From contig JBEKXL010000002.1 in NCBI GenBank assembly GCA_049512075.1, positions 128,001-192,000 of the forward strand: a DNA stretch of 64,000 nt. Direction: 5' to 3'. This document shows positions 2,542 to 51,210 of this stretch, piece after piece (the stretch's first letter is position 1; every line of letters starts with the position of its first letter). The notes under the pieces are model-generated. The model was not told where the DNA came from, searched no databases, and was given only the letters and a program-made list of their open reading frames with translations. The stretch is from Candidatus Bathyarchaeia archaeon. GTDB lineage: Archaea > Thermoproteota > Bathyarchaeia > Bathyarchaeales > Bathycorpusculaceae. The position numbers and the translations under genes are program-made.

Positions 2542-3214
2542 CCTCTTTTACAACATCCAAAGCATTCCCAATTATAAACATCTCGGGTCCTGTTGTTAGC
2601 AGACCAGCAACGGCGGCATGGCTGTTTGCGATGAGACCCGTTCCAACATAGGGTATTCCACAGTTTATCGAGCCAACATCGACTGGAACTTTCAACACAT
2701 CTTCCAAGGTTTTCCTTTCCTGCTCCTTCAACAACGGATGCGCTAAAACGCCTTTGTTTGTGGCCACTGCCAGGGAGCCAACATAGGGCAGTCCGGCAAT
2801 TTCGCTCGGAACCGTCTCAACGCACAGAGTCTCAGATATGGTCTGCACGTCCGAACTCTTCAATCGTGGATCAACGATTGCGCCGTGATCGTTTGCCAGA
2901 ACCAGGTTTCCATACGCGGTTTTCCTGGTCTCCATTATCGTTATGTTCCCTTCAAAGCCGCACCTTATGCTTTGAAGCTCCTCTTCTCGAACGAAGCTGG
3001 GAAGCAGGATTCCGTTTGAATTCGCATAGGCAAGCGCACCGGCAAGGATTGAGCCTCCGATTGCCGTGTGTACTAGCTTGACTCTTAACCATTGGCTGAG
3101 TCTCTCAGCCTTTTTTGTTGGTACCGATTTTGGAACTATGAGCATCTTTTCTGTTGCCAAGGAGTAGACACCTATGCTCGGGGTTCCGATAAGGCTCGAC
3201 AGGTATATGGCCAA
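2507..3214 (-). CDS. eif6: translation initiation factor aIF-6
   Basis: GNLVLANDHGA, VGSLAVATNKG and GSINCGIPYVGTGLIAN repeats; operon context. Confidence 0.95.
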   Translation of the reverse strand: MAIYLSSLIGTPSIGVYSLATEKMLIVPKSVPTKKAERLSQWLRVKLVHTAIGGSILAGALAYANSNGILLPSFVREEELQSIRCGFEGNITIMETRKTAYGNLVLANDHGAIVDPRLKSSDVQTISETLCVETVPSEIAGLPYVGSLAVATNKGVLAHPLLKEQERKTLEDVLKVPVDVGSINCGIPYVGTGLIANSHAAVAGLLTTGPEMFIIGNALDVVKEDEEIESFQSNR

Positions 3215-3217
3215 GGA

Positions 3218-3769
3218 TTAATCTCCTTCGGCCAGATAAACCGTGATATTGCCATCCTTGTCTTTTGCAGCCCTTACCCGAATTTTCCTCGGAGGCTTCT
3301 CCACGCCCCTTTCCCAAACCTTCTCATTCACTTCGTTGCTGATAATGAGTTTTGGAGGTTCTTCTTCTTCCTCTTCTCCTTCTTTTTTGGCTTCCAGCTT
3401 CATGTGTTTTGTTATGAAGGCTCTGATCATCCGCATCGCTCTGGGCGTTCTTTTCCTCGGCGGCATAATCCAAGCTTTCCCCAGTGGAACCGTGTAGATT
3501 CTTTCTTCAACTATTTCTTCTTCCTCAGGCTTCTCTTCCCGTAAGGGCGGCTTGCCTTCTTCCTTTTCCTCGCTGGGTGCCTGCGCCTCTTCCTCCTTGG
3601 GTTCAGCTTCTTCTGGAGTTTCCTCTTCTTTTTCTGTCTTCTCTTCCAGTGTCTCTTCAGCAGTTTCAGTCATTTCTTCTTCTGTTTCTTGAGCTTTCTG
3701 TTCTTCTTTTTTGCTCTCCTCTTCAGCCAAGCCTTTCCCTCCTAGGCCCTTATTTTCCTCTGTCGCCAT
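3218..3769 (-). CDS. rpl31e: 50S ribosomal protein L31e with long acidic N-terminal extension (start probably ATG 3769, not 3823)
   Basis: ERIYTVPL...KRTPRAM...ISNEVNEKVWERGVEKPPRKIRVRA core; the longer ORF start would lie deep inside rpl39e. Confidence 0.9.
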   Translation of the reverse strand: MATEENKGLGGKGLAEEESKKEEQKAQETEEEMTETAEETLEEKTEKEEETPEEAEPKEEEAQAPSEEKEEGKPPLREEKPEEEEIVEERIYTVPLGKAWIMPPRKRTPRAMRMIRAFITKHMKLEAKKEGEEEEEEPPKLIISNEVNEKVWERGVEKPPRKIRVRAAKDKDGNITVYLAEGD

Positions 3770-14700: not shown

Positions 14701-15213
14701 TTATGCTATTCTTTTTCCGAACCGCGTTGGAGATGGACTGTTGTCGTAGACTTCATGCACGTTAACAACGTAAACGGGTCTTTTTCTCCTTGTCTCTTTC
14801 GTTAGCGCATAATGAAATGAATCATGAACCAAGTTTACAAACTCGCTATACGAGTCATTTTTGTGGATTTCAATCTTTCCGCGGATCTCAAAACTGATTG
14901 AAGGCGGCTGATAAAACAGCAGGCAAGTGCTCAGATTGTGCTGAACTATCTGCCACGTGTGCTTTGAAGAGTGCGGTTTCGACAGGGCAAGCTCGATTGT
15001 TGACATCTTGCTAAAATCCACACGTTCCTGAGCAATTTTGGGATCTTCAAAATACAAGTACTCAAGCAAAAGTGAAGCGCCTGTCCTCTGATATTCTCTC
15101 GAATTCTTCTCTATTTCGTCCCTAGTCTGATTCTTCCCGAACAACTTGTCTCCGTACTCGAGGTGTTCATCAAAAGCCCTTATCGCAGCATCCATGTATT
15201 TCTTTCTCGTCAC
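14701..15213 (-). pseudogene. C-terminal part of a host gene (possible FMN-binding split-barrel/PNPOx-like) interrupted by the IS6 transposon
   Basis: reading frame continues across the TSD from 23307-23524 (…VGVGYVTR|KKYMDAAIR…). Confidence 0.75.
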
Positions 15214-15274
15214 GGCTCTGTGAAGTCTCCGTTGGTTTTGGGGTTCATGTGAAAAACCGTTTGGTGAACAAAAC
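15214..15274 (+). repeat. left terminal inverted repeat
   Basis: GGCTCTGTGAAGTCTCCGTTGGT...TGTGAAAAACCGTTTGGTGAACAAAAC. Confidence 0.9.
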
Positions 15275-15391
15275 GGATAAAGGTTCTAGTACTTGGTTCT
15301 GTCAAGTCTTCGGTTGATATGCCTTCTTGTGAAAAAGCGGTTGATAACTGTTTTGCCTTAGTTATCAAGGCTCTTTCCAAGAGAAAATTCT

Positions 15392-18067
15392 CTAAAAGAT
15401 GCTTGGGAATATATCTGAAATTACTTCTTTCATCAGAGCTTCTTCTTTTGAGACTGATTCGGTAATCAGCGTGTTAATCTGTTGTTTCTTTGATTCGTAT
15501 TTCTCGACGATTTCCCGTTGCTTGTCAGTCTCGTAGGCAGGGATTGCCAATCGCCCGAGGTCATCTTCAGACATTCGCCCATACTGCCCTGTGAAAGTGG
15601 AATTAACAAGATAGTTGATGGGTTCTGATGTTAAAACGATTCTAAGGTACTTCCGCAGAACCTTTTCCTTCCCAGTGGTTGCGTCCTTCTTGGGTATGAG
15701 CTTATAGTATTCATCCGTAGCCCTAATTTCATCCAATTCGTCAGGTATGATTCCAACAATTCCATTCTTCAGTTGTATCCTTGAAACTACCAAATCTCCC
15801 TTACGGAAAATCTGAGTCTTTTTCAGTTTCGGGTCATGAGTTCCATCTATGACCCCGTACTCGACATCTCCCGACTTTGTAATGCGCTCTATATATTTGC
15901 TTCCAAATTGATTCACGTCTTCAGCGACCTCTTCTCTTTCGAAATTCACGACATTCCCGATTTTGTCTGCCTTGCCAGTCGCCATTATTATTTTCTCTAT
16001 TTCCTTCAGTCGAGGCGAATAGAACTTGGGGTCAAGTCGGTTATTGAATTGCTTTGTCTCTTCATCATGATAGTTTTCGAGATCTTCAGCTTTGCAAATA
16101 AAAGAATACTCGGAAAATTTCGTTTTCCTCCCCATACAAAAAGCACGATAATCCGCAAGAATGTCCGTCAGATTGTTCGGCATAACTCTCGTGCTCTTGC
16201 CATAGTTTTCGCCACAGTACTTTGCAATGCCCATAAAAATATCATTATCTTGAATTATACCGTCACCTTTCTTTTGAAGCAATAAAATGCTTGTGAAATT
16301 GTTTGCGTCTTGTTCCTTGAAAACTCCCCAAGGTAGTGAAACTATTGCTTTTATATTGAAGTTTCTTTTGATGAAATCCCTGACGTAACTTTCTCTTGGA
16401 TTATTGACTACGCCATCGTCTACTACTATTCCAAGGATTCCTCCGTTCGCCAATAGTTGGTAACAACGTTCGATAAACAGTATCTTAGAATCCCGCGAGC
16501 GGATGTCCTGTTCTCTTTTTGAGTATACGAACCGCCTTTGTTCTGGGTTGTATTTGTGAACGTGCGACAGCTCATACCCTTCGAGGGCATCGCGTCCATC
16601 TATGTCAATATGGCTTTTAGGCTTAACAGTAGAACTGAAGGGTGGATTTGTCAATGCAAGCATGAAGTAATTTTCTATGAGAATTGTCTTGAAGGCTTCT
16701 CTCTTCAATGAGTCGCCAAAATTTATTCCAGTGCTACCGTCCCCATGAACACTCATATTCATTGCTGCAGTCTTCGCAACATCCTCTTCATTATCAAAAC
16801 CTATGAGTAGTTCCTCACATAGTCTCCGCTTAGCTACCTTATGCTCCCTTTTGGCATCTTCATTCAGAAAGGTTTCTTCCCCTTTCCCTTGCTTGACCAT
16901 AAAGCGTGTTTTCAGTTCGTTATCAAGAATCGAGAAGACTGAAAGAAGGAAACCACCACTCCCGCAAGCTGGGTCAACACAGCGTACGCCAGATGCACCC
17001 CAAGAAACACCGACCATGCCCACTAGAAAATCTACAATCCTCCTTGGAGTAAAATATTGCCCGTTCTCCCCACGAAATATCGTACTAACAAAATTCTCGT
17101 AAACGTGAGCAACTGGTGGATAGACTTTCCCGTCTTCATCAACCATGAAGATTCTTTCTAGTTTTTTCACAATTCTGTTTATAGTTACGTCATCGAGTAG
17201 TAACTTATCTTCGGTCTTGAAAATTCTTACATTTTTTTGGCGGTAATGGGTTTTTATATCCTCGAAGAGAGTACCCCCGATATAGTTTTCCCCTTCTTCG
17301 AGAACCTTTGTGTAGGTAAAGCGGTTCTCCTTACCTTCTCTCTCACGTCTGTCTTCGTACAGCTTAATGAAGAGAAGCTTATTCATCTCAGCGAAAGCAC
17401 GGATACCAGTCTTCGATTCACTTGCTTCTCGCATCTCATCTTGACAGTTAAAAAGAATACGTTCAAACTCTTTCTGGTTGAGCATTGGCGCTCTGAATAA
17501 GGGAGGCTGGCTGACCCGTTTTCCCAATGGAATGATATTTTTCTTTCCCAGCACTTTTTCTACAATTTCAAATTTGTCAAAAATCTCCCGCTCATTCACT
17601 GGAGAGAATGGAAGCTCCTGTCGCGTAAGCGTTTCATAAACATGAGTTTCTTCAACATTGGTAGCGACGTAATACTTCGGGCGAGGTTTGAGTTCATTGG
17701 CTTGTGAATAATCGTAGGCCTGTCCTTCCGCATTCTCGGTAGCGGTTTTCAAAGGATGACCGTAACTCTTGACTTCGATTACAATAACAGGGTCGCCGTT
17801 CTTGCGGACTATGACATCGCTCTGACCCCCAATTCTATTGACCTGCCTCCCTTCGTTCTTCGTAAGATGTTGTTTAACATCAATATCAGTGATGGCATAA
17901 CCTAAAGCGTTTCGAAGGAACGGGACAAGAAAATGGGTTATGGAAGCATCTTCTGATGGAGATAGATTCAATGCTTTTTCCATTGTAGTTTTGTTGTCAC
18001 ACCATAATTGCCCTTCAGCCTCTGGGATTCCGAACCATTCACACATGCGTTTAGCTATTCCGGTCAA
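15392..18067 (-). CDS. fused restriction-modification enzyme (type IIG-like: nuclease + N6-adenine MTase + specificity domain)
   Basis: N-terminal SDVIV...IEVK PD-(D/E)xK motif; GQYFTPR, DPACGSGGFL and TNPPF; C-terminal HsdS-like TRD. Confidence 0.88.
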   Translation of the reverse strand: MTGIAKRMCEWFGIPEAEGQLWCDNKTTMEKALNLSPSEDASITHFLVPFLRNALGYAITDIDVKQHLTKNEGRQVNRIGGQSDVIVRKNGDPVIVIEVKSYGHPLKTATENAEGQAYDYSQANELKPRPKYYVATNVEETHVYETLTRQELPFSPVNEREIFDKFEIVEKVLGKKNIIPLGKRVSQPPLFRAPMLNQKEFERILFNCQDEMREASESKTGIRAFAEMNKLLFIKLYEDRREREGKENRFTYTKVLEEGENYIGGTLFEDIKTHYRQKNVRIFKTEDKLLLDDVTINRIVKKLERIFMVDEDGKVYPPVAHVYENFVSTIFRGENGQYFTPRRIVDFLVGMVGVSWGASGVRCVDPACGSGGFLLSVFSILDNELKTRFMVKQGKGEETFLNEDAKREHKVAKRRLCEELLIGFDNEEDVAKTAAMNMSVHGDGSTGINFGDSLKREAFKTILIENYFMLALTNPPFSSTVKPKSHIDIDGRDALEGYELSHVHKYNPEQRRFVYSKREQDIRSRDSKILFIERCYQLLANGGILGIVVDDGVVNNPRESYVRDFIKRNFNIKAIVSLPWGVFKEQDANNFTSILLLQKKGDGIIQDNDIFMGIAKYCGENYGKSTRVMPNNLTDILADYRAFCMGRKTKFSEYSFICKAEDLENYHDEETKQFNNRLDPKFYSPRLKEIEKIIMATGKADKIGNVVNFEREEVAEDVNQFGSKYIERITKSGDVEYGVIDGTHDPKLKKTQIFRKGDLVVSRIQLKNGIVGIIPDELDEIRATDEYYKLIPKKDATTGKEKVLRKYLRIVLTSEPINYLVNSTFTGQYGRMSEDDLGRLAIPAYETDKQREIVEKYESKKQQINTLITESVSKEEALMKEVISDIFPSIF

Positions 18068-18264
18068 TTTGCTCCCTCAGTACCTTTCTCTGTATTTTTC
18101 TTCTCTTGAACAACCAGTTGCCCATCTTTGACGTTAATTTCAAGTTCTTGCCCACCTTTCCACCCCAACTGGTTGATGGCATCGTCGGGGATTATAATCA
18201 CGTGCTTATAGTGTCGCTTGTCCTTATATTTGTAAGCGAGTTGTTTTTGGAGTTTAGCTTTCAT
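18064..18264 (-). CDS. AbrB/MazE-family DNA-binding protein
   Basis: VIIIPDDAINQLGWKGGQELEINVKDGQLVV; stop overlaps the R-M gene start. Confidence 0.85.
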   Translation of the reverse strand: MKAKLQKQLAYKYKDKRHYKHVIIIPDDAINQLGWKGGQELEINVKDGQLVVQEKKNTEKGTEGAN

Positions 18265-18430
18265 TTTTGGGATTCCTCAAATTTGTCAATCAGGAAGGAA
18301 ACAACTTCGTGGTAAGGCACTTCCTTTTTCTTTTTCTGTTCTGCCAAGTAGCGAGCGATTTTATCCAATCTTTCCTCGTCTTTTTGCTCGATTCTGATGG
18401 GTTTCGTCAGCGTTGTTTTCCTTCTTCTTT

Positions 18431-18498
18431 GTTTACAGCGTTTACTTCGTTAACTATGTTAACTTGTTTACAATGTGAACGCTGTTTACGCTGTACAC
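18431..18498. repeat. array of eight GTNNAC hexamers at 9-bp period
   Basis: gtttac-agc-gtttac-ttc-gttaac-tat-gttaac-tt-gtttac-aat-gtgaac-gct-gtttac-gct-gtacac. Confidence 0.75.
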
Positions 18499-18506
18499 AG
18501 GGTTAA

Positions 18507-18603
18507 TGGTACCATAAAACTATTTAACATTTATGGTGTTTGTGGTACCACAACGCTTATATTATTGTGGTACCATAACAATTATCAGTGTAGTGTGGTA
18601 CCA
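18507..18603. promoter_or_regulatory. four TGGTACCA palindromes (putative operators) in the divergent promoter region
   Basis: TGGTACCA at 18507, 18543, 18568 and 18596 among AT-rich TATA-like stretches. Confidence 0.65.
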
Positions 18604-19739
18604 TGATGACAATAGAGGAACTGGAAAATCTCCGAGAGCTAAGAGGCTCAGAGATTGTTCGTAAAAAAGGAAATCAAATTAACCGCATAGATGATTGCCT
18701 TTACACCGTTAAGTCTCAGTCTGGAAACGGTGAGTATGCTGTTTGTCAAGTTGACAATGAATTAGTCTGCGAATGTCCAGACTTCCAATTTCGCAATGTT
18801 AAATGCAAACACATTTTTGCAGTAGAGTTTTCTAAGTCGCTAAGAGAAGCAACTCAGAGAATTGCTCCAATAGAAAACCTTTCAGCATGCATCTATTGTA
18901 ATTCTTCTAATTTGATGAAATATGGCTTACGAAAAAACAAAACTGGAAATCTCCAAGTATTCTATTGCCGAGATTGCCACAAATACTTCACTATCAACAT
19001 CGGTTTTGAGAAAATGAAGCACAACCCTCAAGCAATCACAAGCGCAATGCAACTATACTTCTCAGGTGAGAGCCTAAGAAATACTCAGAAGTCGCTTAAG
19101 CTCTTAGGAGTCGAAGTTTCGTACAGATCAATCCTAAACTGGATAAAAAAATACGTTAGTCTCATGAAAAACTATGTTGAAACCATTACTCCAAACGTAA
19201 GCGACACATGGAGAGCAGACGAAATATACATCAAGGTAAAAGGTGACATGAAGTACCTTTTCGCTATGATGGATGATGAAACACGGTTTTGGATTGCTCA
19301 GGAAGTTGCAGAGACTAAATACACTCATGATGCACGGAAACTTTTGCAGATGTCCAAACAGTTGATGGGTAAGAAACCTATGACCTTCATTACTGACGGT
19401 CTTCCAGCGTACCATGATGCATACAAGAAGGAGTTTTGGACACAGAAGAAAGAAACTCGAACAGAACACGTTAGGCATATCACTTTGAGAGGAGATCACA
19501 ACAATAACAAAATGGAACGCATGAACGGAGAAGTACGAGACAGAGAAAAGACTATGAGAGGATTAAAAACCAAAGACACAGCGATTCTCTCCGGTTATCA
19601 GATTTTCCACAACTACATCCGAGGACATGAAGCACTTGACGGTAAGACTCCTAGTGAAGCTTGTGGAATAACGGTAGAAGGAAAAAACAAATGGCTAACC
19701 CTAATCCAAAATGCTAAACTATCATCAGTCGAAAAATAG
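18603..19739 (+). CDS. IS6-family DDE transposase with N-terminal SWIM and zinc-ribbon domains
   Basis: CECPDF...CKHIFAV (SWIM), CIYC...CRDC, WRADE, FITDG and NNNKMERMNG catalytic motifs. Confidence 0.9.
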   Translation: MMTIEELENLRELRGSEIVRKKGNQINRIDDCLYTVKSQSGNGEYAVCQVDNELVCECPDFQFRNVKCKHIFAVEFSKSLREATQRIAPIENLSACIYCNSSNLMKYGLRKNKTGNLQVFYCRDCHKYFTINIGFEKMKHNPQAITSAMQLYFSGESLRNTQKSLKLLGVEVSYRSILNWIKKYVSLMKNYVETITPNVSDTWRADEIYIKVKGDMKYLFAMMDDETRFWIAQEVAETKYTHDARKLLQMSKQLMGKKPMTFITDGLPAYHDAYKKEFWTQKKETRTEHVRHITLRGDHNNNKMERMNGEVRDREKTMRGLKTKDTAILSGYQIFHNYIRGHEALDGKTPSEACGITVEGKNKWLTLIQNAKLSSVEK

Positions 19740-19822
19740 ATTGACAATATTGTCTGTCGCCAACAGACACACTTAAATAGTTAAATAGTATGCCGCCCTA
19801 AGTCTATTGGGAGAAAAGAGAG

Positions 19823-20128
19823 ATGATGAAGGTAAATTTGTACAGTATGTTTTGCACTGATACTCTTAGGCATAGAGAGACTGCTAGGAATATTCTAGAG
19901 AAGCTGTCCAAAACGTCAAAAAACGACGTAGTCATAATTGACTTTGATAAAATAGAGTTTGCCTCACGGTCTTTTCTTCATGAACTTATGAGTTGCCTTG
20001 CGGATAGAAAGGTTGAGTTTAGGAACCAGAATGAAGAAGTCGCAAGAATGACCGATGTTATTTCGAAAAGCATTGAGGCTTACTCTGAAGAAAGACGCGG
20101 AAAACACTGTATAGCAACTGCACAGTAG
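19823..20128 (+). CDS. STAS-like (DUF4325-type) protein
   Basis: VIIDFDKIEFASRSFLHEL motif. Confidence 0.75.
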   Translation: MMKVNLYSMFCTDTLRHRETARNILEKLSKTSKNDVVIIDFDKIEFASRSFLHELMSCLADRKVEFRNQNEEVARMTDVISKSIEAYSEERRGKHCIATAQ

Positions 20129-20130
20129 GT

Positions 20131-20964
20131 TTATCGCAGGTATTTATAAAATTCAATCTTTTTCAAATTGAAATTAATCCCTACCAAAGCGCCCTGCCAC
20201 TGCGATTTCAATTTCCACTCTTTTCTTTCCCCCAACTTATCATAGATGAGTGATTTCCCTGACATTATTACCAGCTTTCCACCATAGCCGTGGATGAACA
20301 TTTTGGCTATACTAGGGATACCTGTTCCTCTGAGATTTTCCTTTTTAGAAGATTTCCCAACCAATGCGTTAATGATGGCTTGTCTATCACTTTTTACTTC
20401 ATACTTAGTCCCTTTGTATGAAGCCTTATACCCAATGCCACAATCTGCAATTACAATCTCGCAGGTTCTATGTGGCCTTTCCCAAAATTGAGCCAACAAC
20501 CAATAATGATCTATGTTCGCATGTTCATTGACATTGTTCACCAATTCGCTAGTTAGATGTTTCAAGCTTAGCTTGAATGAGGATGAGTATTCGTCTGAAC
20601 TTGCCATTTCCAAAATCAAGTCTTCATACTTGCCCAAGACCTTATTCTGTTCAATCGGCGGTAGCCTTGTTATTGGCAGATAACGCTTTTCATCACTTGG
20701 TAATTCCTCAAAACCATTTGGAAAACCGATTGTACTAAGATAGCTTTGGACATCATGGTCTTTTTCTGAACAAGTCAGATTCATTCTGTTATGAGAAGCA
20801 AATACGGCCAAAGGAAGTATTGAAAGTGGTGTAACAAAATCTGCTCTACACAAATCGGTATAAGGAATGTCGTTGCGTAAAGCTGAATTTAATTCCTCCA
20901 AATTCTGAACAAGTTCATCAATGCGTTCAGATATTCCGTAGTGATGTCTTATCTCCATGGACAA
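20131..20964 (-). CDS. GHKL/HATPase-domain protein (anti-sigma-like kinase)
   Basis: SELVNNVNEHA N-box, IADCGIG G1 and RGTGI G2 motifs. Confidence 0.8.
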   Translation of the reverse strand: MSMEIRHHYGISERIDELVQNLEELNSALRNDIPYTDLCRADFVTPLSILPLAVFASHNRMNLTCSEKDHDVQSYLSTIGFPNGFEELPSDEKRYLPITRLPPIEQNKVLGKYEDLILEMASSDEYSSSFKLSLKHLTSELVNNVNEHANIDHYWLLAQFWERPHRTCEIVIADCGIGYKASYKGTKYEVKSDRQAIINALVGKSSKKENLRGTGIPSIAKMFIHGYGGKLVIMSGKSLIYDKLGERKEWKLKSQWQGALVGINFNLKKIEFYKYLR

Positions 20965-21061
20965 AAGCTTTGACAGAAGTATGATATAACATTTGGTTTA
21001 CTCTAAAATCTGATTTTTGCAGAGGTCGTGAGACTTTACAGGAACAAAAACAGAAATTTTA

Positions 21062-21271
21062 TCATGAGTGCCAGCGTTTTCTTCTCCATCCTTTCTTGCG
21101 GACCATGAATTTGACATCAGAACCCTTGTACGCCTTGTTCAATTCCCTAGCTTCTTTCTCAGCTTTCTTCTTCGTCCTGAAACGTTCTCCAGCAACAACA
21201 CGAATAGGACTCTTTCCCTTTCGTCTAACAACAAGCCACTTCTTAGGGTCAGGTCGCCTTTGATAACCCAA
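21062..21271 (-). CDS. small highly basic hypothetical protein
   Basis: 69-aa K/R-rich ORF; a truncated paralog lies at ~21883-21969. Confidence 0.5.
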   Translation of the reverse strand: MGYQRRPDPKKWLVVRRKGKSPIRVVAGERFRTKKKAEKEARELNKAYKGSDVKFMVRKKGWRRKRWHS

Positions 21272-21385
21272 AAGGATTCACAGAAGAAAAATCTGAAAAC
21301 TACATAGGGCTCCTTTTGAGTTTAGCGTGCATTTGAAACAAAAAGCTTAACAGTGTTCCATGCGCAATGATTGTGAGTTGGTATT

Positions 21386-21904
21386 ATGAAAGATGTTGAG
21401 CTGAGATTGATTTCTGAGTTGATGACAAACAGTTGTAGGAGCGATAGACAGCTTGCCAAGGCATTGGGAGTTTCTCAGCCCACAGTGTCACGAACAAAAG
21501 CAAAGCTGGAAAAAGAAGGCTACATCTCTGAACACACGATTATCCCCAATTTCAACAAAATAGGTTATCACCTGTTTGCATTAACTTTTTTCTCGTGGAA
21601 ACAAGGTATCAGCAAGAGCGATAAGGAAAAGGCAATCAAATACGCTCAAGAGAGGGCTTCCTTTCTCCCATCTAACATAGTTCTCGTTGAAAGAGGAATC
21701 GGGATGAACTACGACGCATTCATGGGGTCATTCCATAAGGACTACTCATCTTACAGGGAACTCATGAATGAAATGAAAGAGAGTCAATACACAGATGTGA
21801 ATAGGATGGACAGCTTCATTGTCGACCTTACCGACAAATTCCACTATCGAACCTTAACCTTCTCAACCCTTGCCAAACACCTAATAGAAACAAACCAAAA
21901 GTAA
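21386..21904 (+). CDS. Lrp/AsnC-family transcriptional regulator
   Basis: SDRQLAKALGVSQPTVSRTKAKLEKEGYI...IPNFNKIGY. Confidence 0.88.
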   Translation: MKDVELRLISELMTNSCRSDRQLAKALGVSQPTVSRTKAKLEKEGYISEHTIIPNFNKIGYHLFALTFFSWKQGISKSDKEKAIKYAQERASFLPSNIVLVERGIGMNYDAFMGSFHKDYSSYRELMNEMKESQYTDVNRMDSFIVDLTDKFHYRTLTFSTLAKHLIETNQK

Positions 21905-22063
21905 ACTCGTAACTGTGATAGGACTCTTTCCCTTCCGCTTTGCAATAAGCCACTTTCTTTTTAGCCAATTATGCGAATAAGTCGTATGGGCTCCCAACAG
22001 AAAAATCAACATGGGCTCGTTCGTGGTGAAATGTTAAAATAGTCTTGAAGTTCATTTCCATTT

Positions 22064-22246
22064 ATGTATCCAATAGTGGCCAGAAAACTCATAATAAGTG
22101 CCATTCTATCAGTCTTGGCCTTTTATCTGTTCGTTCTAGGGGCGAGTGCTTACCAAGGACTAGACGGGGAGATGGTCAGAGCTGTCTACTTCTCCGGAGC
22201 AGCGATAGTGTTTGCAATTGCCATTATTCCTTGGATGACCAAATAA
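22064..22246 (+). CDS. small two-TM membrane protein
   Basis: two hydrophobic helices; lies between two GGGCTC repeats. Confidence 0.5.
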   Translation: MYPIVARKLIISAILSVLAFYLFVLGASAYQGLDGEMVRAVYFSGAAIVFAIAIIPWMTK

Positions 22247-22456
22247 TGATACTCGCTAGAGTGAGACCACACAAATAACTTAACGGTATCTAGTATGTGG
22301 GCTCGTTTTACGATAGGTCAGCAGACGAAAAGTAACAAGGAGATCAAGCAGACGAAGAAGTACCAGAACCTCGCCTACCACCCGACCTGTAACACGAAGG
22401 TTAGCCACTCTGATGATAGACCAGAACCAGAAAAATCGTCATGAGTGCACGCGAAA

Positions 22457-22666
22457 CTACTTTAAGATTACGTGCACTTGTTTTTGCAAGCGTTCTTGAA
22501 CCTCTACGGTTTCTCTGATTTCTTTGTTCTTGGCCTCTATCAATTCATGATAGTGCTGTTTCAATAGTTGTAGCTTCCCTGCGTCTTGAAGGTCTACTTT
22601 GCTCAATCTCTCACATTTGATTAAGGAACTAGATAATGTTGACCGATTCTTAAAAAGAATATGCAA
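22457..22666 (-). CDS. hypothetical coiled-coil protein or fragment
   Basis: ORF only. Confidence 0.3.
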   Translation of the reverse strand: MHILFKNRSTLSSSLIKCERLSKVDLQDAGKLQLLKQHYHELIEAKNKEIRETVEVQERLQKQVHVILK

Positions 22667-22890
22667 CAGTGTAGAACACTAAAACAATGAGTCATCCCCC
22701 GACAGTTAACAAGGAAACAAACCAAACAAAGAGTTTACAGAACCTGTTTTTTGGAAAATTAGAGACATAGTTGTATGGAAAGTCGTGAATAAGCAGTTTG
22801 GGTTTGGGAGCAGAAATCAGGTCAGTTAAGCCTTATCTCGGATACATAAGAGGTTTATACTGAGAACTTGCAATAGTTGAAGACACACGA

Positions 22891-23199
22891 ATGAAGGGGT
22901 CCAAGATGGCACGTTCTAAACTTGAGACGTACGTTGACATTCTCAAAGTGTTGGCTCATCGTGGACCCTTGAAGCTAACGCATATAATGTATAAAGCAAA
23001 CGTGAATGGTAGCATTCTGAGAGAGTATCTGGACTTCCTGCTCAAACAGAATCTTGTTGAAGAAAGAAACGTGGGGAAAAGTAGAACCGTCTTTGCTGTA
23101 ACTCAAAAAGGCATAACGGTGCTCAAGAACTTCAGGGAACTGCAACAAATATTGCCAATCATTGAAGAAACAAGAAATATGATCCCAACACCTATTTGA
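22891..23199 (+). CDS. winged-HTH transcription regulator
   Basis: RSKLETYVDILKVL...LTHIMYKANVN...YLDFL...TQKG. Confidence 0.85.
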   Translation: MKGSKMARSKLETYVDILKVLAHRGPLKLTHIMYKANVNGSILREYLDFLLKQNLVEERNVGKSRTVFAVTQKGITVLKNFRELQQILPIIEETRNMIPTPI

Positions 23200-23246
23200 T
23201 TTCGCTTAAGTTCAGGGAATCATCAACCGACTTTTTACGTGGGCTC

Positions 23247-23306
23247 GTTTTAGTCACCAAACGAATTTTCACAACAAAACCTACCAAACGAAGACTTCAC
23301 AGAACC
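23247..23306 (-). repeat. right terminal inverted repeat
   Basis: reverse complement GGTTCTGTGAAGTCTTCGTTTGGT...TGTGAAAATTCGTTTGGTGACTAAAAC. Confidence 0.9.
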
Positions 23307-23524
23307 CTCGTCACGTAGCCCACCCCAACGATTTTGGCATTGACGAATATCTGACCGTCTTCTTTCTGAAAAGCGGTGCATAATGCAGGATTGTGGCGCG
23401 TGCTTTCCAAGAAGAAGCGGTCCGCATCCACTATCGAATGGCGATTAACCAGGTCGAGCAACGCTTTTCTTCTTGGAAAATAGTTCCATCGCAAGAAACT
23501 TTCGGGAAGAGCTACCGTGAGTCT
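23307..23524 (-). pseudogene. N-terminal part of the gene interrupted by the IS6 transposon
   Basis: LPESFLRWNYFPRR...STRHNPALCT...VNAKIVGVGYVTR joins in frame to 14701-15213 through the TSD. Confidence 0.75.
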
Positions 23525-24358
23525 TCAACACCCCACAGGATGCACTTAATGATCTCTGAAATAAACTAATAGCTTCACTTCTGAGGTTTTGAACAGCGTG
23601 TTTTCTATGTGCCAAGTGGCTTTGCTTCACGTGGGAGCGGAAGACTTTACGCCAAAAACAATAACACTTTTCGAGGTTCTTTCAAAACCGATGAGCCGGT
23701 TGCCGGGTTTGAATGACGCTTGCTGTTCGATGTTGCCCAGATGATGCTTAACGATGAGTCTGATGACATCCTTGGAGCATGTGCCCAAGGCTGGAGGTTA
23801 CAGCAGAATTTCAATAACTATGCTCCCGCATACTCAAGAAAACAGATGATCTTGGGGAGATTGAGCTATCAAGATCAGAAGTCATCAAAACTTGCGAATG
23901 CTGCCTAGATGATGAAAAAATAGTCGATGATATTTACGCTATGAAGCAGAGGAGGATTAATCCGGATGAGCTATGGCGACGACATGTTGAACGCATCAAC
24001 TGTGAGACTGATGGCTATTGCAGATACTGTGGCAAGAAATTTCGGAGTTATCGAGGTGCCGCTTCGGGTGGTTTGTGCTTTGGGATTCACGACTCTGAAC
24101 ACATCTTGTTCTGTTGCTTCCTTGAACGGTTTCTTTATAAATAGGTCGTACTGTTTGAAATGTCTAAGGTGTAATCGATGGTACATTTGCCCTGCTCGTT
24201 TACGCGCTTCATCTCCACGAAGCGTTCCAAATCAACCTTGTCTTGGCCGATCGTGTCACTCGCAGGGCGCATGCGCTCCACTACTTCAGCTATGACCTGT
24301 CCGAATGATCGGAAACAGAAATCAAATTACCAGGAATGACATGAACTAGGAAGGATGT

Positions 24359-32318: not shown

Positions 32319-32711
32319 ATGCGTAATATTGTCAACGAACCTATGTATATTACGGTGCAGAGTATGGCAAACCGTGTTAGAACCGTGGATATGCTGTGCC
32401 TGCCGCCAGGCAAAAAGTATAATCTGAGCAGCCTGCAACCTCTGCACAAGAAATACAGAAGCCACTTCGAGATCATTGGCTTGGTACTTGAAGCCGTAAA
32501 GGCTGACAGTGCCACTCCCTTCTCCATCATGAAACACGCAAACGTCAACTTCATGCAACTCAAGAAATACCTAAAGTCTCTAACTGAAATAGGCTTCCTT
32601 GAAGTTGAAATCAAGAGAAGCACTATTTCCTACAGAGCAAGCAAGGAAGGTCTTGAATTCCTAAAACAGTATTATACTCTGATTGAGATGCTGTTGACCG
32701 CTCGGATCTGA
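32319..32711 (+). CDS. winged-HTH transcription regulator
   Basis: YRSHFEII...IMKHANVNFMQLKKYL...SKEGLEFL. Confidence 0.75.
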   Translation: MRNIVNEPMYITVQSMANRVRTVDMLCLPPGKKYNLSSLQPLHKKYRSHFEIIGLVLEAVKADSATPFSIMKHANVNFMQLKKYLKSLTEIGFLEVEIKRSTISYRASKEGLEFLKQYYTLIEMLLTARI

Positions 32712-32949
32712 AGAGAAGAAAGCCTTGCAACGAACAACGTTGCTTGACTAACATGTGACCTTCGGCACAGAATTCTATCGAGTCAAACTGCGCACGTTTT
32801 TTCGATGTTCAATGCCTCCTTAAGAATTTGATTCGTTAGCGCGCCGTGGCTTTGGGCCGTCGTGAGGCGGCGGATCATGATTTTCTGTCGGCACAAGATT
32901 ATTAAACACACCTTTTTCACTAAATAACATCTGCCTCAACTAAGGAGGA

Positions 32950-33150
32950 ATGTTGTTGCCCCGAAAATTTACTTACTCAAATGCCGGTGTCGACAGGGAG
33001 TTAAGAGCTCATTCTAAGAAGGCACTGGGTTATCTTAAGAAAACCTACGGTTACAGCCATTACGGCAAACTCGTCGATCTTCCATATGGGAAGATTTTTC
33101 CAGGGATAGACTGCTACTTTGGCTTGGTCATTGAAGGTGTGGGCACAAAG
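32950..33150 (+). pseudogene. purM: N-terminal fragment of the native AIR synthetase
   Basis: TYSNAGVD...IEGVGTK; homology stops where an inverted-repeat element starts at 33151. Confidence 0.82.
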
Positions 33151-33312
33151 GGATTAGACCCCGAACGAGACTGTGTGAAAACTCGGGTCGCTTTCAGAAA
33201 ATTGCTTGTTTTATGTGTAAAAGGCTGACCTTGGGACGTGTTCTATACATGTAGAGCGCAATTTCTTGAAACAAATTTGACTTTTCACACAGTCTCGAAT
33301 GGGGTCAAGTCC
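33151..33312. mobile_element. MITE-like element
   Basis: perfect 16-bp IR CGAGACTGTGTGAAAA (33166-33181 / 33282-33297) inside a 10/12 outer IR (33151-33162 / 33301-33312). Confidence 0.75.
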
Positions 33313-33409
33313 AACTGTCAAATTCTTCAGCGCTCGCGCCGACAATTTCATCCTTGTCCCCAAAAATCCTTCCATTTTATAAAGATATCAAACGAATAGA
33401 CAATTGAAA

Positions 33410-33891
33410 GCGCGCTGCCTTGTCCCTAAAATGGTTAAAAATGGTTATAAGTCCGTTTTTGCTTGTCTGAGCCTGAAATGGACTTCTTTGACGAACGCGT
33501 TTTATGCAGCGCTTAAGGACGGCAAACCCAGAAGCTTCACAGTGCTTCTGAGCGAAGTGGGGTTTAGCCACAACACTTTGCAGCAGCATCTCAAGCGTCT
33601 AACGGCTCAAGGTCTCATTGTCAGGGAGAAAGCAACCGCGAACAGTTTCGGAAGACCCAAATTTGCCTATCATGTGCCATCCAAGACCACGAAACAGGTC
33701 ACCGTCGCCCTCCAACATCCACGCGTTGAGCTCGTGGCCCTCCCGTTTAGTCGCTTAAGGCACGTTTGCAGGTTTGAGAAGGGCGGTTACTGCAAAGAAA
33801 GAAGGAGGGGCTGTGCGCCTCAAAACTGCCCCCAAACCCGAAAATAGGAATTATGACCATTTTACACCAATTTCGGGACAAGCCAGCGCGC
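33410..33891. mobile_element. TIR element copy B, flanked by GCGCGC
   Basis: same inverted ends as 10698-11000. Confidence 0.8.
33478..33847 (+). pseudogene. wHTH protein with C-terminal Cys4 cluster, apparent +1 frameshift after codon 9
   Basis: ATG 33478 gives MDFFDERVL then an early stop; the shifted frame gives AALKDGKPRSF...FSHNTLQQHL...GRPKFAY...CRFEKGGYC...CAPQNCP. Confidence 0.65.
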
Positions 33892-48594: not shown

Positions 48595-49965
48595 TTAGGT
48601 GGGCGTGATTTTGTATTCTTTTCCTCGTTTGATGAGTTGAACCTTGTTGCTTATTTTCTTGAATAGGTGCGCGTTTTCTGTGTGCACGGGATAGATTTTC
48701 TTGGGTTCTATTTCGTTGATGAGGTTTCCTATCTGCTCCTTGTTCATGTGTCCGGAAGCGTGCAGCTGGTGAAACTGTATTCCAAAATGTTCAAGCCAGT
48801 TGTGCAGGACCTCGTCTTCAATGTCCTCTTCGCTGAAGGGTTCACTCATGCTGTGTATGAAGCAACTGCCTCGCTCCGGCCTTATGTCTATCAGCTCTGC
48901 AAACTGGTAGAAATCCAAGTCCATAATTAACTCGTTCTGGTTCTTGTGAACGAACTCGTACGTCACCATCTTGTCCATGAATTCTCTCTCCCACGCATAG
49001 TAGTCACTGTCGTCAAAAGTTCCAGACCTCTTGCGCTTAAAATACACGAGTATGTCTTCATCCTTCAAAGGATCTGGTAGATCAAGACGTTCGTCATCGA
49101 TGAGCCTGCTCAATAAACACGCTGTCTTAGGAGAAATAACCATTTTTCTTCCGTTCCTCTTGGCAACGTTGTAGAAGCTTCTGAACCTATCCATGTCTCG
49201 GCTGTAATGCGATATAAACACGATTTTGTGTGTTGAGGAAACAAGCTTATTGCTCAAATGCTCTACCTGCGCCTCTGAATAGTTCTTTCTTTTTTCCTTC
49301 AAAGTCATTCTCGTGCCCTCGCAGACAAGAGCCGTGGCCCCCGATTCTTTCGCCCTGTGCACGAAATCGTCAGTCAAATCCCTCCGTGGACCATGCATCC
49401 TCAAGTCGCCCGTGTAAGCAATGGTTCCTTCAGAAGTGTGTATCAAGAAGCCGTAAGCCGCTGGAATCGAATGGTCCACGTGCACCGGTTCCACTTCAAC
49501 GTCACCCACTCTGATCTTCTTTCCAGTGCGGAAAGTCCTGTAATCGTGGTTTCCATAATCGCAGAAGCTGCTCGTCTCTTCCATCGACTCAAGAAACAGC
49601 TTGGCCCCAACACCAAGGTACACTGGAATTAGAGGGTCTGTGAAGCAGATGTGAGTCACATGGTCAAAGTGAGCGTGCGACAGAAAAATAGCGTCGAACT
49701 CCGGCTCCGAGTACGGAACATCGGTGAAAGCCAGCTTCTCCTTGGCATAGAGCCCCCGAATCTTCGGCAGCAAACCAAACTCGAAATGGTCTCCCAAACC
49801 GTTTATCGCACGTGGCGAAAGCCAGCCCGTAAAGTATCCTGCGCCAAAACTGAAGGACTGGCCAAAATCAAACAACAATTTCGTTTTTCTATCGTGCACA
49901 AGAATCTTGTTGCCGCCGATCTCGTCGACCCCACCGTAAAAAGTAAGCCCGACCATCCGACTCAC
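48595..49965 (-). CDS. MBL-fold metallo-hydrolase (RNase J/beta-CASP-like)
   Basis: GGVDEIGGN, SHAHFDH, VDHS, YTGDLRMHG, HASGH and PVHTE. Confidence 0.9.
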   Translation of the reverse strand: MSRMVGLTFYGGVDEIGGNKILVHDRKTKLLFDFGQSFSFGAGYFTGWLSPRAINGLGDHFEFGLLPKIRGLYAKEKLAFTDVPYSEPEFDAIFLSHAHFDHVTHICFTDPLIPVYLGVGAKLFLESMEETSSFCDYGNHDYRTFRTGKKIRVGDVEVEPVHVDHSIPAAYGFLIHTSEGTIAYTGDLRMHGPRRDLTDDFVHRAKESGATALVCEGTRMTLKEKRKNYSEAQVEHLSNKLVSSTHKIVFISHYSRDMDRFRSFYNVAKRNGRKMVISPKTACLLSRLIDDERLDLPDPLKDEDILVYFKRKRSGTFDDSDYYAWEREFMDKMVTYEFVHKNQNELIMDLDFYQFAELIDIRPERGSCFIHSMSEPFSEEDIEDEVLHNWLEHFGIQFHQLHASGHMNKEQIGNLINEIEPKKIYPVHTENAHLFKKISNKVQLIKRGKEYKITPT

Positions 49966-50084
49966 ACAAAAACAAAATGCAGACGCCCCTTTTCTAGTTT
50001 AGCTTGCTCGCGCTCACTCAGTTCAGTCAATGCGATCTGTTGCGCGCGCGGAAGCACTAACTACAGTCCCTGACTCATACATTG

Positions 50085-50200
50085 AAAATTACATTTGACA
50101 TTACAAATAAACAGGCCGAGTCCACTCTGAACAGCAGTCCAGCCTGATTTTCAACATGGTTTGTAACAATACACATTACATCTGACCTTACAAGTGAAAA
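50085..50200 (-). repeat. dispersed non-coding repeat, inverted copy of ~29445-29557
   Basis: colinear over ~110 bp (GTCAGA.GTAATGTG.ATTGT.ACAAACCATG...GTTTATTTGTAA.GTCA). Confidence 0.75.
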
Positions 50201-50289
50201 AAGGAAGCGACTTTGAAAGGATATGATGTAAAGGTGTTTCAGCATGCCTGGATTAACAGCACGCACCAATGGTAGATGCTAAATCAGTG

Positions 50290-51210
50290 TCATGCCAATT
50301 GGTTCTTTATCAAATCCTTGAGTGTTGGAAGTCCTAATCTGGCTCCAATTATTGTTGTACATCTGGATGCCGCAAAATTCCCTATCCTTCCACACTCCTC
50401 AAGACTCTTATGTTTAATCAAGCCGTAAAGAAACCCTGCACAAAAAGCGTCCCCGGCACCGGTCGTGTCAACCACACTCACCTTGAACGCTTCCACCTGG
50501 CTGCTTTGGTTCCCATCAGTCACATAGCACCCTCTGCTGCCCAACTTGACCGCAACAACCTTCACACCCCTCTCGAGCATGGCTTCAGCGCCCTTTCTAT
50601 ACTCGGCTATGCCTGTCAGCAATTCAAGTTCACCCGCGTTCGGCATGAAAACGAAAGTCCTCTCAACAATCGATCCCAGTGCAGCAAGTCCTTTCCTCGC
50701 GTACAATGCACCAGGATCAAAACTTACCCTGACGTCTTCAGGAATCGCTTCAAGAATCTTCTTTTGTGTCTGAAAAGATTCTTCTCCCACAAAAGAGGTT
50801 AAGTGAAGAAACATGGTTTGAGACGCATATCCTTTGATTTTTTCATTGAAGTCTACTTGACTGTTTACGCCCGGGTCAATGTACAGCGCACGCTCGCCGT
50901 TTTCGTCCACGAAGCCCATGACTGTGCCGCTTCTGCCCTTCTTTGCGACCGCTACGCCTTTTGCGTCAACGCCTTCTCTCTGGAATTCTTCGAGCAGCAT
51001 CTTTCCCTCCCTGTCAATGGCAACTTTTCCGATGAAACCTACTTTGCAGCCGAGCCTTGCCAAGCCTGCAGCAGTGTTTGCCGCTGATCCACCGCAGGTC
51101 TCAGCAGAATCGGTTATGAAGCTCTCCTCTTCCTTCGCGGCTATCTTGTTTACCTTGAAAAGTTTGTCCACGTTAAGCGCGCCGAATCCCACAACGTCAA
51201 ATCTGCTCAT
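50290..51210 (-). CDS. PfkB-family carbohydrate/nucleoside kinase
   Basis: GGSAANTA and DTTGAGDAF signatures. Confidence 0.93.

Follow-up and report, generated by a model that had tools for sequence, protein, structure and literature searches.

An 8.1-kb unit transposon with a SWIM finger-bearing, IS6-type transposase in Bathyarchaeia and its relatives among archaea

In a stretch of 64,000 nucleotides from Candidatus Bathyarchaeia archaeon (GenBank assembly GCA_049512075.1, contig JBEKXL010000002.1, positions 128,001 to 192,000; this whole stretch is hereafter referred to as the window), a sequence-only reading had pointed to an 8.1-kb, cargo-carrying transposon whose transposase resembles those of the IS6 family of insertion sequences (IS). 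According to the analysis presented here, the segment 15214-23306 of the window very probably constitutes one transposon of a large, mostly archaeal family whose members we designate "SWIM-IS6 elements", a name coined in this analysis. Its movement would be driven by one DDE transposase of the IS6/IS240 type which harbours an N-terminal SWIM finger and a four-cysteine zinc ribbon. The element represents a paired-end insertion with an 8-bp staggered cut, and an IS6-type DDE protein is its only recombinase.

Boundaries, insertion site and transposase of the element

The element comprises 8,093 bp and is bounded by imperfect inverted repeats of about 61 nt (Table 1), with the octamer CTCGTCAC present as an exact duplication on both sides. 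At the left junction the sequence reads ...TTTCTTT CTCGTCAC followed by the start of the element, GGCTCTGTGAAGTCTCCGTTGGTTTTGGGGTTCATGTGAAAAACCGTTTGGTGAACAAAAC..., and at the right junction it reads GGTTCTGTGAAGTCTTCGTTTGGTAGGTTTTGTTGTGAAAATTCGTTTGGTGACTAAAAC... on the opposite strand, the element being directly followed by CTCGTCAC on the plus strand. A repeat search pairs 15214-15233 with 23287-23306 (20 nt, 90%) and 15248-15275 with 23246-23273 (28 nt, 86%); counted from an alignment of the left with the right end, 47 of 61 positions are identical. Either end consists of a tip, GGYTCTG, and two subrepeats of the form TGTGAA-N4/5-CGTT(T)GGT, spaced 28-29 nt from start to start, namely TGTGAAGTCTCCGTT-GGT and TGTGAAAAACCGTTTGGT in the left end and TGTGAAGTCTTCGTTTGGT and TGTGAAAATTCGTTTGGT in the right one. 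Junctions, repeat search and alignment accordingly confirm the inverted repeats of about 60 bp with two subrepeats each, and the exact 8-bp target-site duplication, which the sequence-only reading had described. In sibling elements, sequence of the left-end type is found downstream and sequence of the right-end type upstream of the transposase gene. The G+C content amounts to 39-42% within the element as compared to 44-53% in its flanks, which we count as a sign of foreign character.

The element is inserted in a host gene encoding 238 aa, which it inactivates. Excising 15214-23314, i.e. the element together with one copy of the duplicate, creates an open minus-strand frame of 240 codons running over the junction, in keeping with the earlier statement that the interrupted gene re-joins in frame. 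The 170-aa C-terminal part of the host protein is matched in five of 41 genomes (the window's own genome, designated G000 and counted among the five, plus 40 relatives). One of these is G002, a genome of the same genus, where a frame open for 240 codons contains the match (94% identity). At the DNA level, both flanks of the element have counterparts in G002, at 95.8% over 1,213 nt for the left one and 94.1% over 354 nt for the right one. There the two are directly adjacent and share exactly 8 nt. A three-way alignment reveals one single CTCGTCAC at the G002 site, located inside an intact, ATG-initiated open reading frame (ORF) of 238 aa whose product has no Pfam match. This is the empty allele which the sequence-only reading had suggested to seek in relatives. 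The start-codon region, ATG GTG in G002 (L014, 1290-1305), reads ACG GTA in the window (23500-23530, minus strand); the start codon was probably lost after the disruption of the gene. Since the split host gene is decaying, the insertion is not very recent. At the reciprocal site, that of a sibling element on contig C14 of G002, the right flank alone has a counterpart in G000.

The intact transposase gene begins 3,389 bp from the left end and stops 3,567 bp from the right end, close to the 3.4 kb from either end that had been given before. In the protein, C56, C58, C68 and H70 are the ligands of the SWIM finger and C96, C99, C122 and C125 those of the zinc ribbon, while D206, D265 and E305, assigned from motifs, form the DDE triad, with R312 following seven residues after the glutamate. 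All of these residues are invariant across 16 aligned homologues. The Pfam model DDE_Tnp_IS240 (PF13610) matches with 62.1 bits (cut-off 27) and SWIM with 24.9 bits (cut-off 19.6); the best NCBIfam model is transpos_IS6 (120 bits), with IS1 as runner-up (52 bits). The four-cysteine region resembles the N-terminal zinc domain of IS1/IS1595 (26.2 bits, cut-off 28). A tblastn search of the transposase against 72,556 plasmids returned at least 5,000 records, and our statements on it cover the matches listed. Among these, all with informative annotation are IS6-family transposases. The best are clostridial proteins of the ISCpe7 type, which share 29-31% identity from residue 89 or 130 to about 365. 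Matches on C. botulinum plasmids take in the zinc ribbon and leave residues 1-88 with the SWIM finger uncovered. IS6100, IS1216 and others show 21-27% identity. A profile search against the sequences of the PDB yielded no meaningful relative of the transposase. The assignment as an IS6-like transposase with a SWIM finger and a zinc ribbon, made earlier from the sequence, is thus upheld by the Pfam matches, by the invariant ligands and by the annotated plasmid matches listed.

Table 1. Features of the window element and of sibling elements in the same genome. Positions of the first 18 rows refer to the window, those of the last four to the contig named
Feature	Position	Strand	Remarks
Host gene, 3' part	14701-15213	-	170 codons; no Pfam family; 94% identical to G002 orthologue
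Left target-site duplication copy CTCGTCAC	15206-15213		single copy at the G002 empty site
Left terminal inverted repeat	15214-15274	+	~61 nt; tip GGCTCTG; subrepeats ~15219-15236 and ~15248-15265
Inner end-like copy GGTTCTGTCAAGTCTTCGGTTGAT...	15295-15349	+	81 bp inside left end, same orientation; position weight matrix score 30.6
Restriction-modification-specificity fusion, predicted type IIG-like	15392-18067	-	891 aa; HSDR_N-type N-terminus, N6-adenine methyltransferase, C-terminal specificity domain
AbrB/MazE-like small DNA-binding protein	18064-18264	-	66 aa; weak match
Two palindromic stretches	18430-18499, 18527-18591	.	second holds TTGTGGTACCACAA; directly upstream of transposase gene; repeat search
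Transposase	18603-19739	+	378 aa; SWIM finger, 4-Cys zinc ribbon, helical region resembling a helix-turn-helix (HTH), DDE domain
DUF4325 (STAS-like) protein	19823-20128	+	101 aa; 27.1 bits, cut-off 23; partner of next gene
GHKL/HATPase-like ATP-binding protein (probable)	20131-20964	-	277 aa
Winged-helix regulator	21386-21904	+	172 aa; HTH_24/AsnC-type N-terminus (Pfam)
Inner end-like copy GGTTCTGGTACTTCTTCGTCTG...	22316-22370	-	85% match to the C12 element's outer end
Inner end-like copy GGTTCTGTAAACTCTTTGTTTGGT...TGTTAACTGTCGGGGGATGA	22690-22744	-	562 bp inside right end
HTH_45/Sso10a-like chromatin protein	22891-23199	+	102 aa; HTH_45 60.9 bits; Sso10a_fam 57.2 bits (cut-off 60)
Right terminal inverted repeat	23246-23306	-	~61 nt
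Right target-site duplication copy CTCGTCAC	23307-23314
Host gene, 5' part	23315-23524	-	70 codons; ATG start of G002 reads ACG here
Element in the window	15214-23306		8,093 bp
Sibling element, C12 (L002)	48748-51916		3,169 bp; duplication AGTTGCAA; inner end at 48842
Sibling element, C1 (L130)	204565-210383		5,819 bp; duplication GGTATTCC; transposase interrupted by TGA
Short sibling derivative, C5	9664-10712		~1 kb
Short sibling derivative, C5	84296-85096		~0.8 kb; encloses HTH_24-like fragment

Ends, sizes and distribution of the family

The element is not alone in its genome. Full-length transposase paralogues are encoded on contigs C12 (69%) and C14 (63%) besides broken or partial ones, and sibling elements, delimited by a tip-motif scan combined with an inverted-repeat search, are included in Table 1. 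Within the same taxonomic family, 13 of 20 loci around transposase homologues show paired GG ends and an exact 8-bp duplication. A survey of species-representative genomes revealed at least 582 relatives among at least 600 pattern matches, of which the best 80 loci were kept. By record title, these belong mostly to Candidatus Bathyarchaeia/Bathyarchaeota, with Atabeyarchaeia, Sifarchaeum, Nitrososphaerales, Nitrosocosmicus and Methanoperedens also represented. Four of them (L051, L077, L078 and L102) are located in bins labelled Saccharibacteria, Limnocylindrales or Pirellulales; they may be mis-binned archaeal contigs or reflect genuine cross-domain presence. In a large database the protein family comprises 5,652 clusters at 90% identity, the names of which at the source just read "transposase-like" or "DDE-type integrase/transposase/recombinase".

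Mapping of ends and duplications in the homologues, which the sequence-only reading had proposed as a check, disclosed exact 8-bp duplications with GGTTCTGT-type ends at 56 of the best 80 loci, 46 of which were obtained by a blastn inverted-repeat method and a further 10 by a position weight matrix (PWM). A 47th duplication locus from the former method, L074, was left out since its ends do not begin with GG. The remaining loci are made up of two with a duplication that is off by one base, nine with two ends and no duplication, ten with a single end (in six of them the contig stops within 2.2 kb on the side that lacks the other end) and three at which no end was found. L049, which belongs to the taxonomic-family set, exhibits perfect 59-nt ends without a duplication. 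Together with the siblings in the window's own genome, the 56 loci establish that a family of such archaeal elements exists.

For further comparison we used a set of 55 elements, consisting of the 46 survey elements, the window element, three siblings from its own genome or genus and five taxonomic-family loci. Their sizes range from 1,983 to 8,093 bp around a transposase gene of 1.1 kb, the window element being the largest. The non-transposase DNA amounts to a median of 1,128 bp (minimum 356) upstream and 1,059 bp (minimum 33) downstream of this gene, and the extra DNA of the delimited elements amounts to about 0.85 kb or more in every case and reaches 7 kb. Ends close to the transposase gene on either side, which would have assigned the long inverted repeats of the window to an unrelated element, are hence not the rule among the homologues: even the smallest element measures 1,983 bp, and the median distance is about 1.1 kb on each side.

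The 110 ends of the set share the tip consensus GGTTCTGTnAAsTC, with G1 present in 109, G2 in 105, C5 in 101, T6 in 104, G7 in 110 and T8 in 97 of them. At 49 of the 110 ends nt 6-13 recur, with one mismatch or none, 28-40 nt further in, at 31 of them at exactly 28 nt, compared to a mean of 2.8 in shuffled sequences and 3.2 in random internal 80-mers. Two-part ends are a trait of the family. Across 54 elements, transposase identity is correlated with the similarity of the ends over nt 9-45 (Mantel r 0.405), a value reached by none of 999 permutations (permutation maximum 0.222). The elements with the four closest transposases (87-89% identity; L030/L052, L031, L050 and L051) all possess ends of the type TGTGAAG...CGTTTGGT. 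Since ends and transposases vary in parallel, the former can be assigned to the latter. The earlier description as a unit made up of a single transposase, long two-part ends and an 8-bp duplication is upheld.

Mosaic structure, competing explanations and cargo

In the mechanism which we propose, the transposase would recognise the two-part ends, i.e. the tip GGYTCTGT and the two subrepeats of about 18 nt spaced about 28 nt apart, its zinc domains and HTH presumably binding the two subrepeats. It would then link the two ends to target DNA cleaved with a stagger of 8 bp, whereby all DNA between the ends would be carried along as cargo. Fusion of donor and target would duplicate the element, and homologous recombination of the host would resolve the product, 2-8 kb of element providing ample homology. 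This chemistry is drawn by analogy with IS6, and cointegrates, excision and activity are part of the proposal only. We assign an even chance to replicative fusion followed by homologous resolution, and cut-and-paste transposition appears to us a possibility of roughly one in three. Elements with good ends and no duplication, such as L049 and L086, fit inter-copy recombination or intramolecular replicative events and prove neither. The nine survey loci of this kind and L049 would likewise agree with replicon fusion, for which they are not diagnostic. The present 8.1-kb mosaic would still be mobile as a unit, rather than being the product of rearrangement after its arrival.

Several observations weigh against an 8.1-kb, IS6-type unit that is mobile in its present form. 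The first group concerns its architecture. Three inner end-like copies (Table 1) are of sequence types which bound other elements, e.g. the outer and inner ends of the C12 element. The copy at 15295-15349 is 78% complementary to the right end, and those at 22370 and 22744 are oriented like the right end. None of the inner copies is accompanied by a duplication of its own (TAGTACTT vs TGTTTTTT or TCGCCTAC). Two distinguishable end types, ...TAGGTTTTGTTGTGAAAATT... and ...TTTGGGGTTCATGTGAAAAAC..., are kept in the siblings. In L030, L031, L050 and L051 it is the TTTGGGGTTCATGTGAAAAAC-type end that the transposase gene faces with its 3' end, at a distance of 50-550 bp. In the window, the gene reads away from this end and is thus inverted compared to its four closest siblings, which implies a past rearrangement, after which the element may have ceased to be a proper substrate. 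Homology to these four siblings is limited to the transposase gene and about 50 nt of the ends. Given the inner ends and the inverted transposase gene, the window element is a mosaic that has repeatedly been rearranged or has accreted.

The second group concerns copy number. No second copy of the 8.1-kb unit was found in the window's own genome, in 121 genomes of the taxonomic family, which contain parts only (the transposase gene, the ends, the HTH_24 gene and the Sso10a-like gene), or in the contigs of four public runs (X1, X5, X6 and X7), which were compared as contigs, not as reads. An exact scan of metagenome contigs for 38-nt patterns returned one contig, representing the same locus at 100% identity. 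Hence, unit movement of the present 8.1-kb assembly is not demonstrated. The contigs of run X1, possibly the sample of origin, confirm the locus, other joints belonging to related elements of other organisms; among the joints listed there is neither an empty-site joint nor a circle junction, forms which contigs cannot show reliably. In an all-against-all comparison of the 55 elements no element is present at two places, the best pair reaching 56% coverage at 77% identity. Likewise, L077, L103 and L114, which are large and have near-perfect ends, are single-copy in their own genomes, metagenome assemblies being able to collapse or break repeats. Finally, some of the nine survey loci with two ends and no duplication may result from mispaired ends, the transposase scores slightly below the cut-off of the NCBIfam IS6 equivalog NF033587 (120 bits vs 125), and the structure model of the transposase, built with 16 close homologues, is poor (mean pLDDT 57.9, pTM 0.30), so that the fold is not confirmed.

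Much of this could be accommodated by growth in place, i.e. by a SWIM-IS6 element of 2-3 kb which settled at CTCGTCAC and was enlarged there by nested insertions, inversions and deletions, the result of which would never have transposed as a whole and may be immobile. The different types of the three inner copies at 15295, 22370 and 22744, the inversion of the transposase gene relative to the asymmetric ends and the restriction of the 8.1-kb unit to a single locus all point this way. So do contigs of three runs which join 22723 to 23256 and thereby skip a 532-bp segment with the Sso10a-like gene, an arrangement also present in L030. Time for such changes is indicated by the flanks, which deviate by 4-6% from the empty-site genome, and by the lost start codon of the host gene. 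A nested insertion should, however, leave both ends of the guest, and the inner ends have neither a partner end nor an own duplication. A six-frame search of the element produced one transposase match and no remnant of a second transposase. Moreover, the outer ends are of the type cognate to the window transposase, and 18 other elements of 5-7.6 kb (17 of the 55-element set plus L072) display clean 8-bp duplications, which argues that insertion as a large, cargo-bearing unit does occur in this family. We consider growth in place unlikely. The same six-frame search bears on the idea of a decayed compound or pseudo-compound transposon, in which two IS copies once bracketed the cargo and one transposase gene was lost. 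The extra end copies inside the element would be in line with it, but no fragment of a second transposase is present, IS6 pseudo-compounds consist of directly repeated IS copies where here a single inverted end pair with one duplication is found, and 56 of the 80 relatives show the same single-transposase layout. This history is highly improbable.

A further alternative accepts the transposon as such and places it outside IS6, in a separate family whose DDE domain resembles that of IS6 and for which replicative behaviour of the IS6 kind is not to be assumed. Apart from the equivalog score just mentioned, identities of 21-31% to IS6-family transposases among the matches listed speak in its favour, as do the SWIM domain, the two-part ends of 50-60 nt, the size of 2-8 kb and the internal cargo, all of which depart from the description of the family. 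In addition, in the part of their article available to us, Harmer and Hall argue for splitting off the long bacterial and the archaeal "IS6" groups (PMC6807381). Against this stand the hallmarks that are kept, namely the 8-bp duplication (in the window element, at 56 of the 80 survey loci and at 13 of the 20 taxonomic-family loci), the GG tips with CTGT at nt 5-8 and the DDE triad with a basic residue seven positions after the glutamate. Furthermore, the best profile and the best database matches listed are all IS6. On this evidence we hold a separate family to be possible, if rather unlikely.

More speculatively, SWIM-IS6 elements could be an undescribed unit-transposon family in several archaeal phyla (by record titles Bathyarchaeia, the Asgard lineages Atabeyarchaeia and Sifarchaeum, Nitrososphaerales and Methanoperedens) which gains its cargo by "end stacking". 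A new outer end would settle beyond an older one, and the DNA caught between them would become cargo, as might have happened to the Sso10a-like gene, which is enclosed by an inner end (22744) and the outer right end (23306). The PWM detects 15 inner copies in 12 of the 55 elements (0.3 in shuffled sequences); 14 of the 15 have the orientation of whichever true end is closer, seven lie within 150 bp of that end, and they often differ in sequence type from the outer end. If correct, a view to which we give about one chance in four, inner copies in the orientation of the true ends would be traces left by a capture mechanism of general use. For accessory genes, restriction-modification (R-M) genes among them, the family would then be a main vehicle in uncultivated archaea.

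Regarding the cargo of the window element, the sequence-only reading had counted about eight passenger genes. Six ORFs have homology support, and a further two to three small ones have none. The largest is predicted to encode a type IIG-like single-chain R-M enzyme, given its Pfam matches (N6_Mtase 94 bits, HSDR_N 28.9, Eco57I 26.6). With PADLOC the best models are MTase_I and MTase_II, REase_MTase_IIG matching more weakly (1e-20) and Specificity_I covering residues 744-881. An identity as MAD2 of the MADS system was rejected since the NCBIfam equivalog scores 191 bits, far under its cut-off of 720. The 66-aa ORF upstream of it, with 23.1 bits for MazE_antitoxin (cut-off 24.7) and 20.8 bits for the AbrB domain (cut-off 28.3), has a stop codon which overlaps the start of the R-M gene by 4 nt. 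This makes it a candidate controller, and control of the R-M gene by this AbrB-like protein is possible. The two palindromes within 18430-18591 are a possible operator or promoter region. The 277-aa ORF has no Pfam, NCBIfam or PADLOC match. Its neighbours in the Atlas are named ATP-binding protein and 10-17% of the members carry HATPase_c, which we use as a lead only. From its motifs, which we take to be of the GHKL/HATPase kind, it probably encodes an ATP-binding protein of this type. Homologues of this ORF and of the DUF4325 gene (44-53% identity for the two together, 45-48% for DUF4325) adjoin in elements L084 and L098, too.

The HTH_24 gene is multi-copy, with 11 paralogous places elsewhere in its genome including a 95% copy on contig C22, and it is flanked by 38-nt direct repeats (21204-21241 and 21918-21955, 84% identical). 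On C22 (L131) two solo ends, which are of two different types, are stacked at 32343 (+) and 32854 (+) beside a stretch (32947-33596) which reproduces the surroundings of the HTH_24 gene at 96%. As no partner end was found on that contig, we regard this arrangement as probably the remnant of a related element. In run X6 the summed contig depth is 3,350 over 21084-21387 as compared to single digits nearby, suggesting a sequence which is repeated or abundant in the community. The Sso10a-like gene has paralogues on C10, C14 and C1 and is matched in many genomes of the taxonomic family at 70-92% nucleotide identity. Being multi-copy and widespread, it counts as a paralogue of a gene common on chromosomes and not as a typical gene of mobile elements.

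Across the family, 152 non-transposase ORFs of at least 100 aa were obtained from the 55 elements, 150 of which were run against Pfam. An R-M/methylase cluster occurs in 11 of the 55 elements and is the commonest recognised cargo, followed by a ParB-like and an ATPase-like cluster in three elements each; 102 of the 152 ORFs are singletons without a family. By Pfam, N6_Mtase is found in 11 ORFs, Methylase_S and HSDR_N in four each, N6_N4_Mtase, ParB_N, NOV_C and a Proteasome-like match in two each and RE_BsaWI in one, single cases being DprA, TBP, a HAD hydrolase and GNAT. Other loci carry Fic/DOC and ParB-DUF488, the latter matching candidate families of PADLOC. The earlier suggestion that the element spreads defence genes therefore holds in part: R-M-type cargo is carried by 11 of 55 elements, but singletons prevail, and TBP, Sso10a-like proteins, regulators, DprA and the HAD hydrolase, which have no defence role, are carried as well. 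No cargo cluster is common to all 55 elements, and a conserved accessory gene was not found among them.

Some individual cargoes may be recorded here. The same-genus sibling L031 (2421-10058 on G002:C14; 7,638 bp, duplication TCTAATTG) encodes a TATA-binding protein (2961-3521, minus strand; Pfam TBP 102 bits), a methylase, a specificity subunit and a 422-aa protein without a family. Many small elements possess a divergent ORF of 130-190 aa, 230-360 bp upstream of the transposase gene, whose product is heptad-rich and coiled-coil-like in its C-terminal half (L057:9201-9686, L097:9147-9695, L112:9108-9674, L062:4225-4662, L078:1287-1706 and L129:9236-9652). Across most of these ORFs BLAST detects no similarity, and the Pfam hints are weak and sub-threshold; they may represent a fast-evolving accessory protein. 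In several small elements the sole sizeable cargo is a protein of 295-320 aa with weak matches to Proteasome subunits (23-31 bits; L035:10785-11672, L044:11182-12069, L049:10896-11858 and L092:8862-9726).

Relation to known mobile elements

To our knowledge, the mobile elements of Bathyarchaeia and other uncultivated archaea are barely described. With 5,652 protein clusters and at least 582 loci, SWIM-IS6 elements are a widespread family which combines an IS6-type transposase and multi-site ends with, routinely, 1-7 kb of internal cargo. They provide a concrete, delimitable vehicle of gene flow, R-M systems included, in these organisms. Their clean boundaries, defined by tip motif and 8-bp duplication, allow cargo to be catalogued at scale. 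Moreover, they offer a compact one-protein system for studying end recognition, for which we propose that a SWIM finger and a zinc ribbon act on two subrepeats.

IS6 elements are the textbook case of cargo movement by pairs of IS copies. With IS26, IS257/IS431, IS6100 and IS240 the window family shares the DDE model, the 8-bp duplication, the GG...CTGT ends and the basic residue seven positions after the glutamate. It differs from them by one transposase per unit, two-part ends of about 50-60 nt, a size of 2-8 kb and internal cargo, and its transposase shares only about 21-25% identity with theirs. In the portion of the IS6 family review that was accessible (PMC7986276), ends are given as 15-20 bp, starting with GG and containing a cTGTt motif, and the DDE triad as being followed by K/R. 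Classical members are described there as single-ORF elements of 0.7-0.9 kb (700-750 bp in archaea) with cargo between two directly repeated copies, and the clostridial clades h and i as longer and provided with N-terminal zinc fingers, clade i having one more domain at the N-terminus. Measured against this, SWIM-IS6 ends of about 50-61 nt with two subrepeats are long, and elements of 1,983-8,093 bp exceed both the compact, sole-ORF format of 0.7-0.9 kb and its upper extreme of 1.76 kb. The accessible text of Harmer and Hall (PMC6807381) counts 37 archaeal members and places the archaeal and the long bacterial groups distant from IS26. The word SWIM does not occur in the accessible text of either article (0 occurrences in PMC7986276).

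The ISCpe7 type of clade h, which furnishes the closest database relatives listed, exhibits the same order of zinc finger, HTH and DDE domain. As far as the accessible descriptions go, however, clades h and i are bacterial, measure 1.2-1.76 kb and are not described with cargo, while the window family is archaeal-centred and carries cargo. One transposase and one end pair enclosing unrelated genes, as observed here, is the layout of a transporter IS (tIS) or unit transposon. ISDsp3, the sole IS6 member stated in the accessible part of the 2021 review to carry a passenger gene (PMC7986276), is likewise of this kind. It is bacterial, about 1.5 kb long and has one hypothetical passenger according to the same partial source, whereas in the window family extra DNA is the rule and may comprise six or more genes.

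Several other systems share single features. In Tn7-like elements, Mu and the Tn3 family, each end contains several transposase-binding sites and the two ends are distinguishable. Repeated sites per end, two distinguishable ends and variable cargo are present in the window family, too, but it lacks TnsABC, MuB or resolvase-type accessory genes, employs another transposase family and produces an 8-bp instead of a 5-bp duplication. In MuDR and other MULE elements, a SWIM finger (Pfam PF04434) is located C-terminal to a Mutator-type DDE domain. The window transposase shares its CxCxnCxH signature, yet bears it N-terminal to an IS6-type domain. The cargo of Tn7-like elements is rich in defence genes, as stated in the accessible part of PMC8649781. 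Aloposons were rejected as kin since they are characterised, in the part of PMC8813620 at hand, by integration at tRNA sites and by giant genes. The group is not described in the main text, as far as accessible, of surveys of archaeal IS (PMC13343696), of thaumarchaeal elements (PMC6563490) and of Atabeyarchaeia (PMC11529989). The accessible part of the last mentions five "IS-like transposons", which may or may not include the L068 and L108 elements. In the literature as far as it was accessible, we found no published SWIM-bearing transposase of the IS6 type and no IS6 unit transposon from Bathyarchaeia, ISfinder and TnCentral lying outside this search.

The sequence-only reading had seen in the window element a distinct class of archaeal transporter transposon. 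The family does exist, but the wording as a class of its own was overstated, since its members are IS6-type and belong to the known kind of transporter IS or unit transposon. They may be filed either as members of IS6 or as a sister family. In either case, SWIM-IS6 elements combine the hallmarks of the IS6 type with the layout of a unit transposon or "transporter IS", their transposase bearing a SWIM finger and their ends being multi-site.

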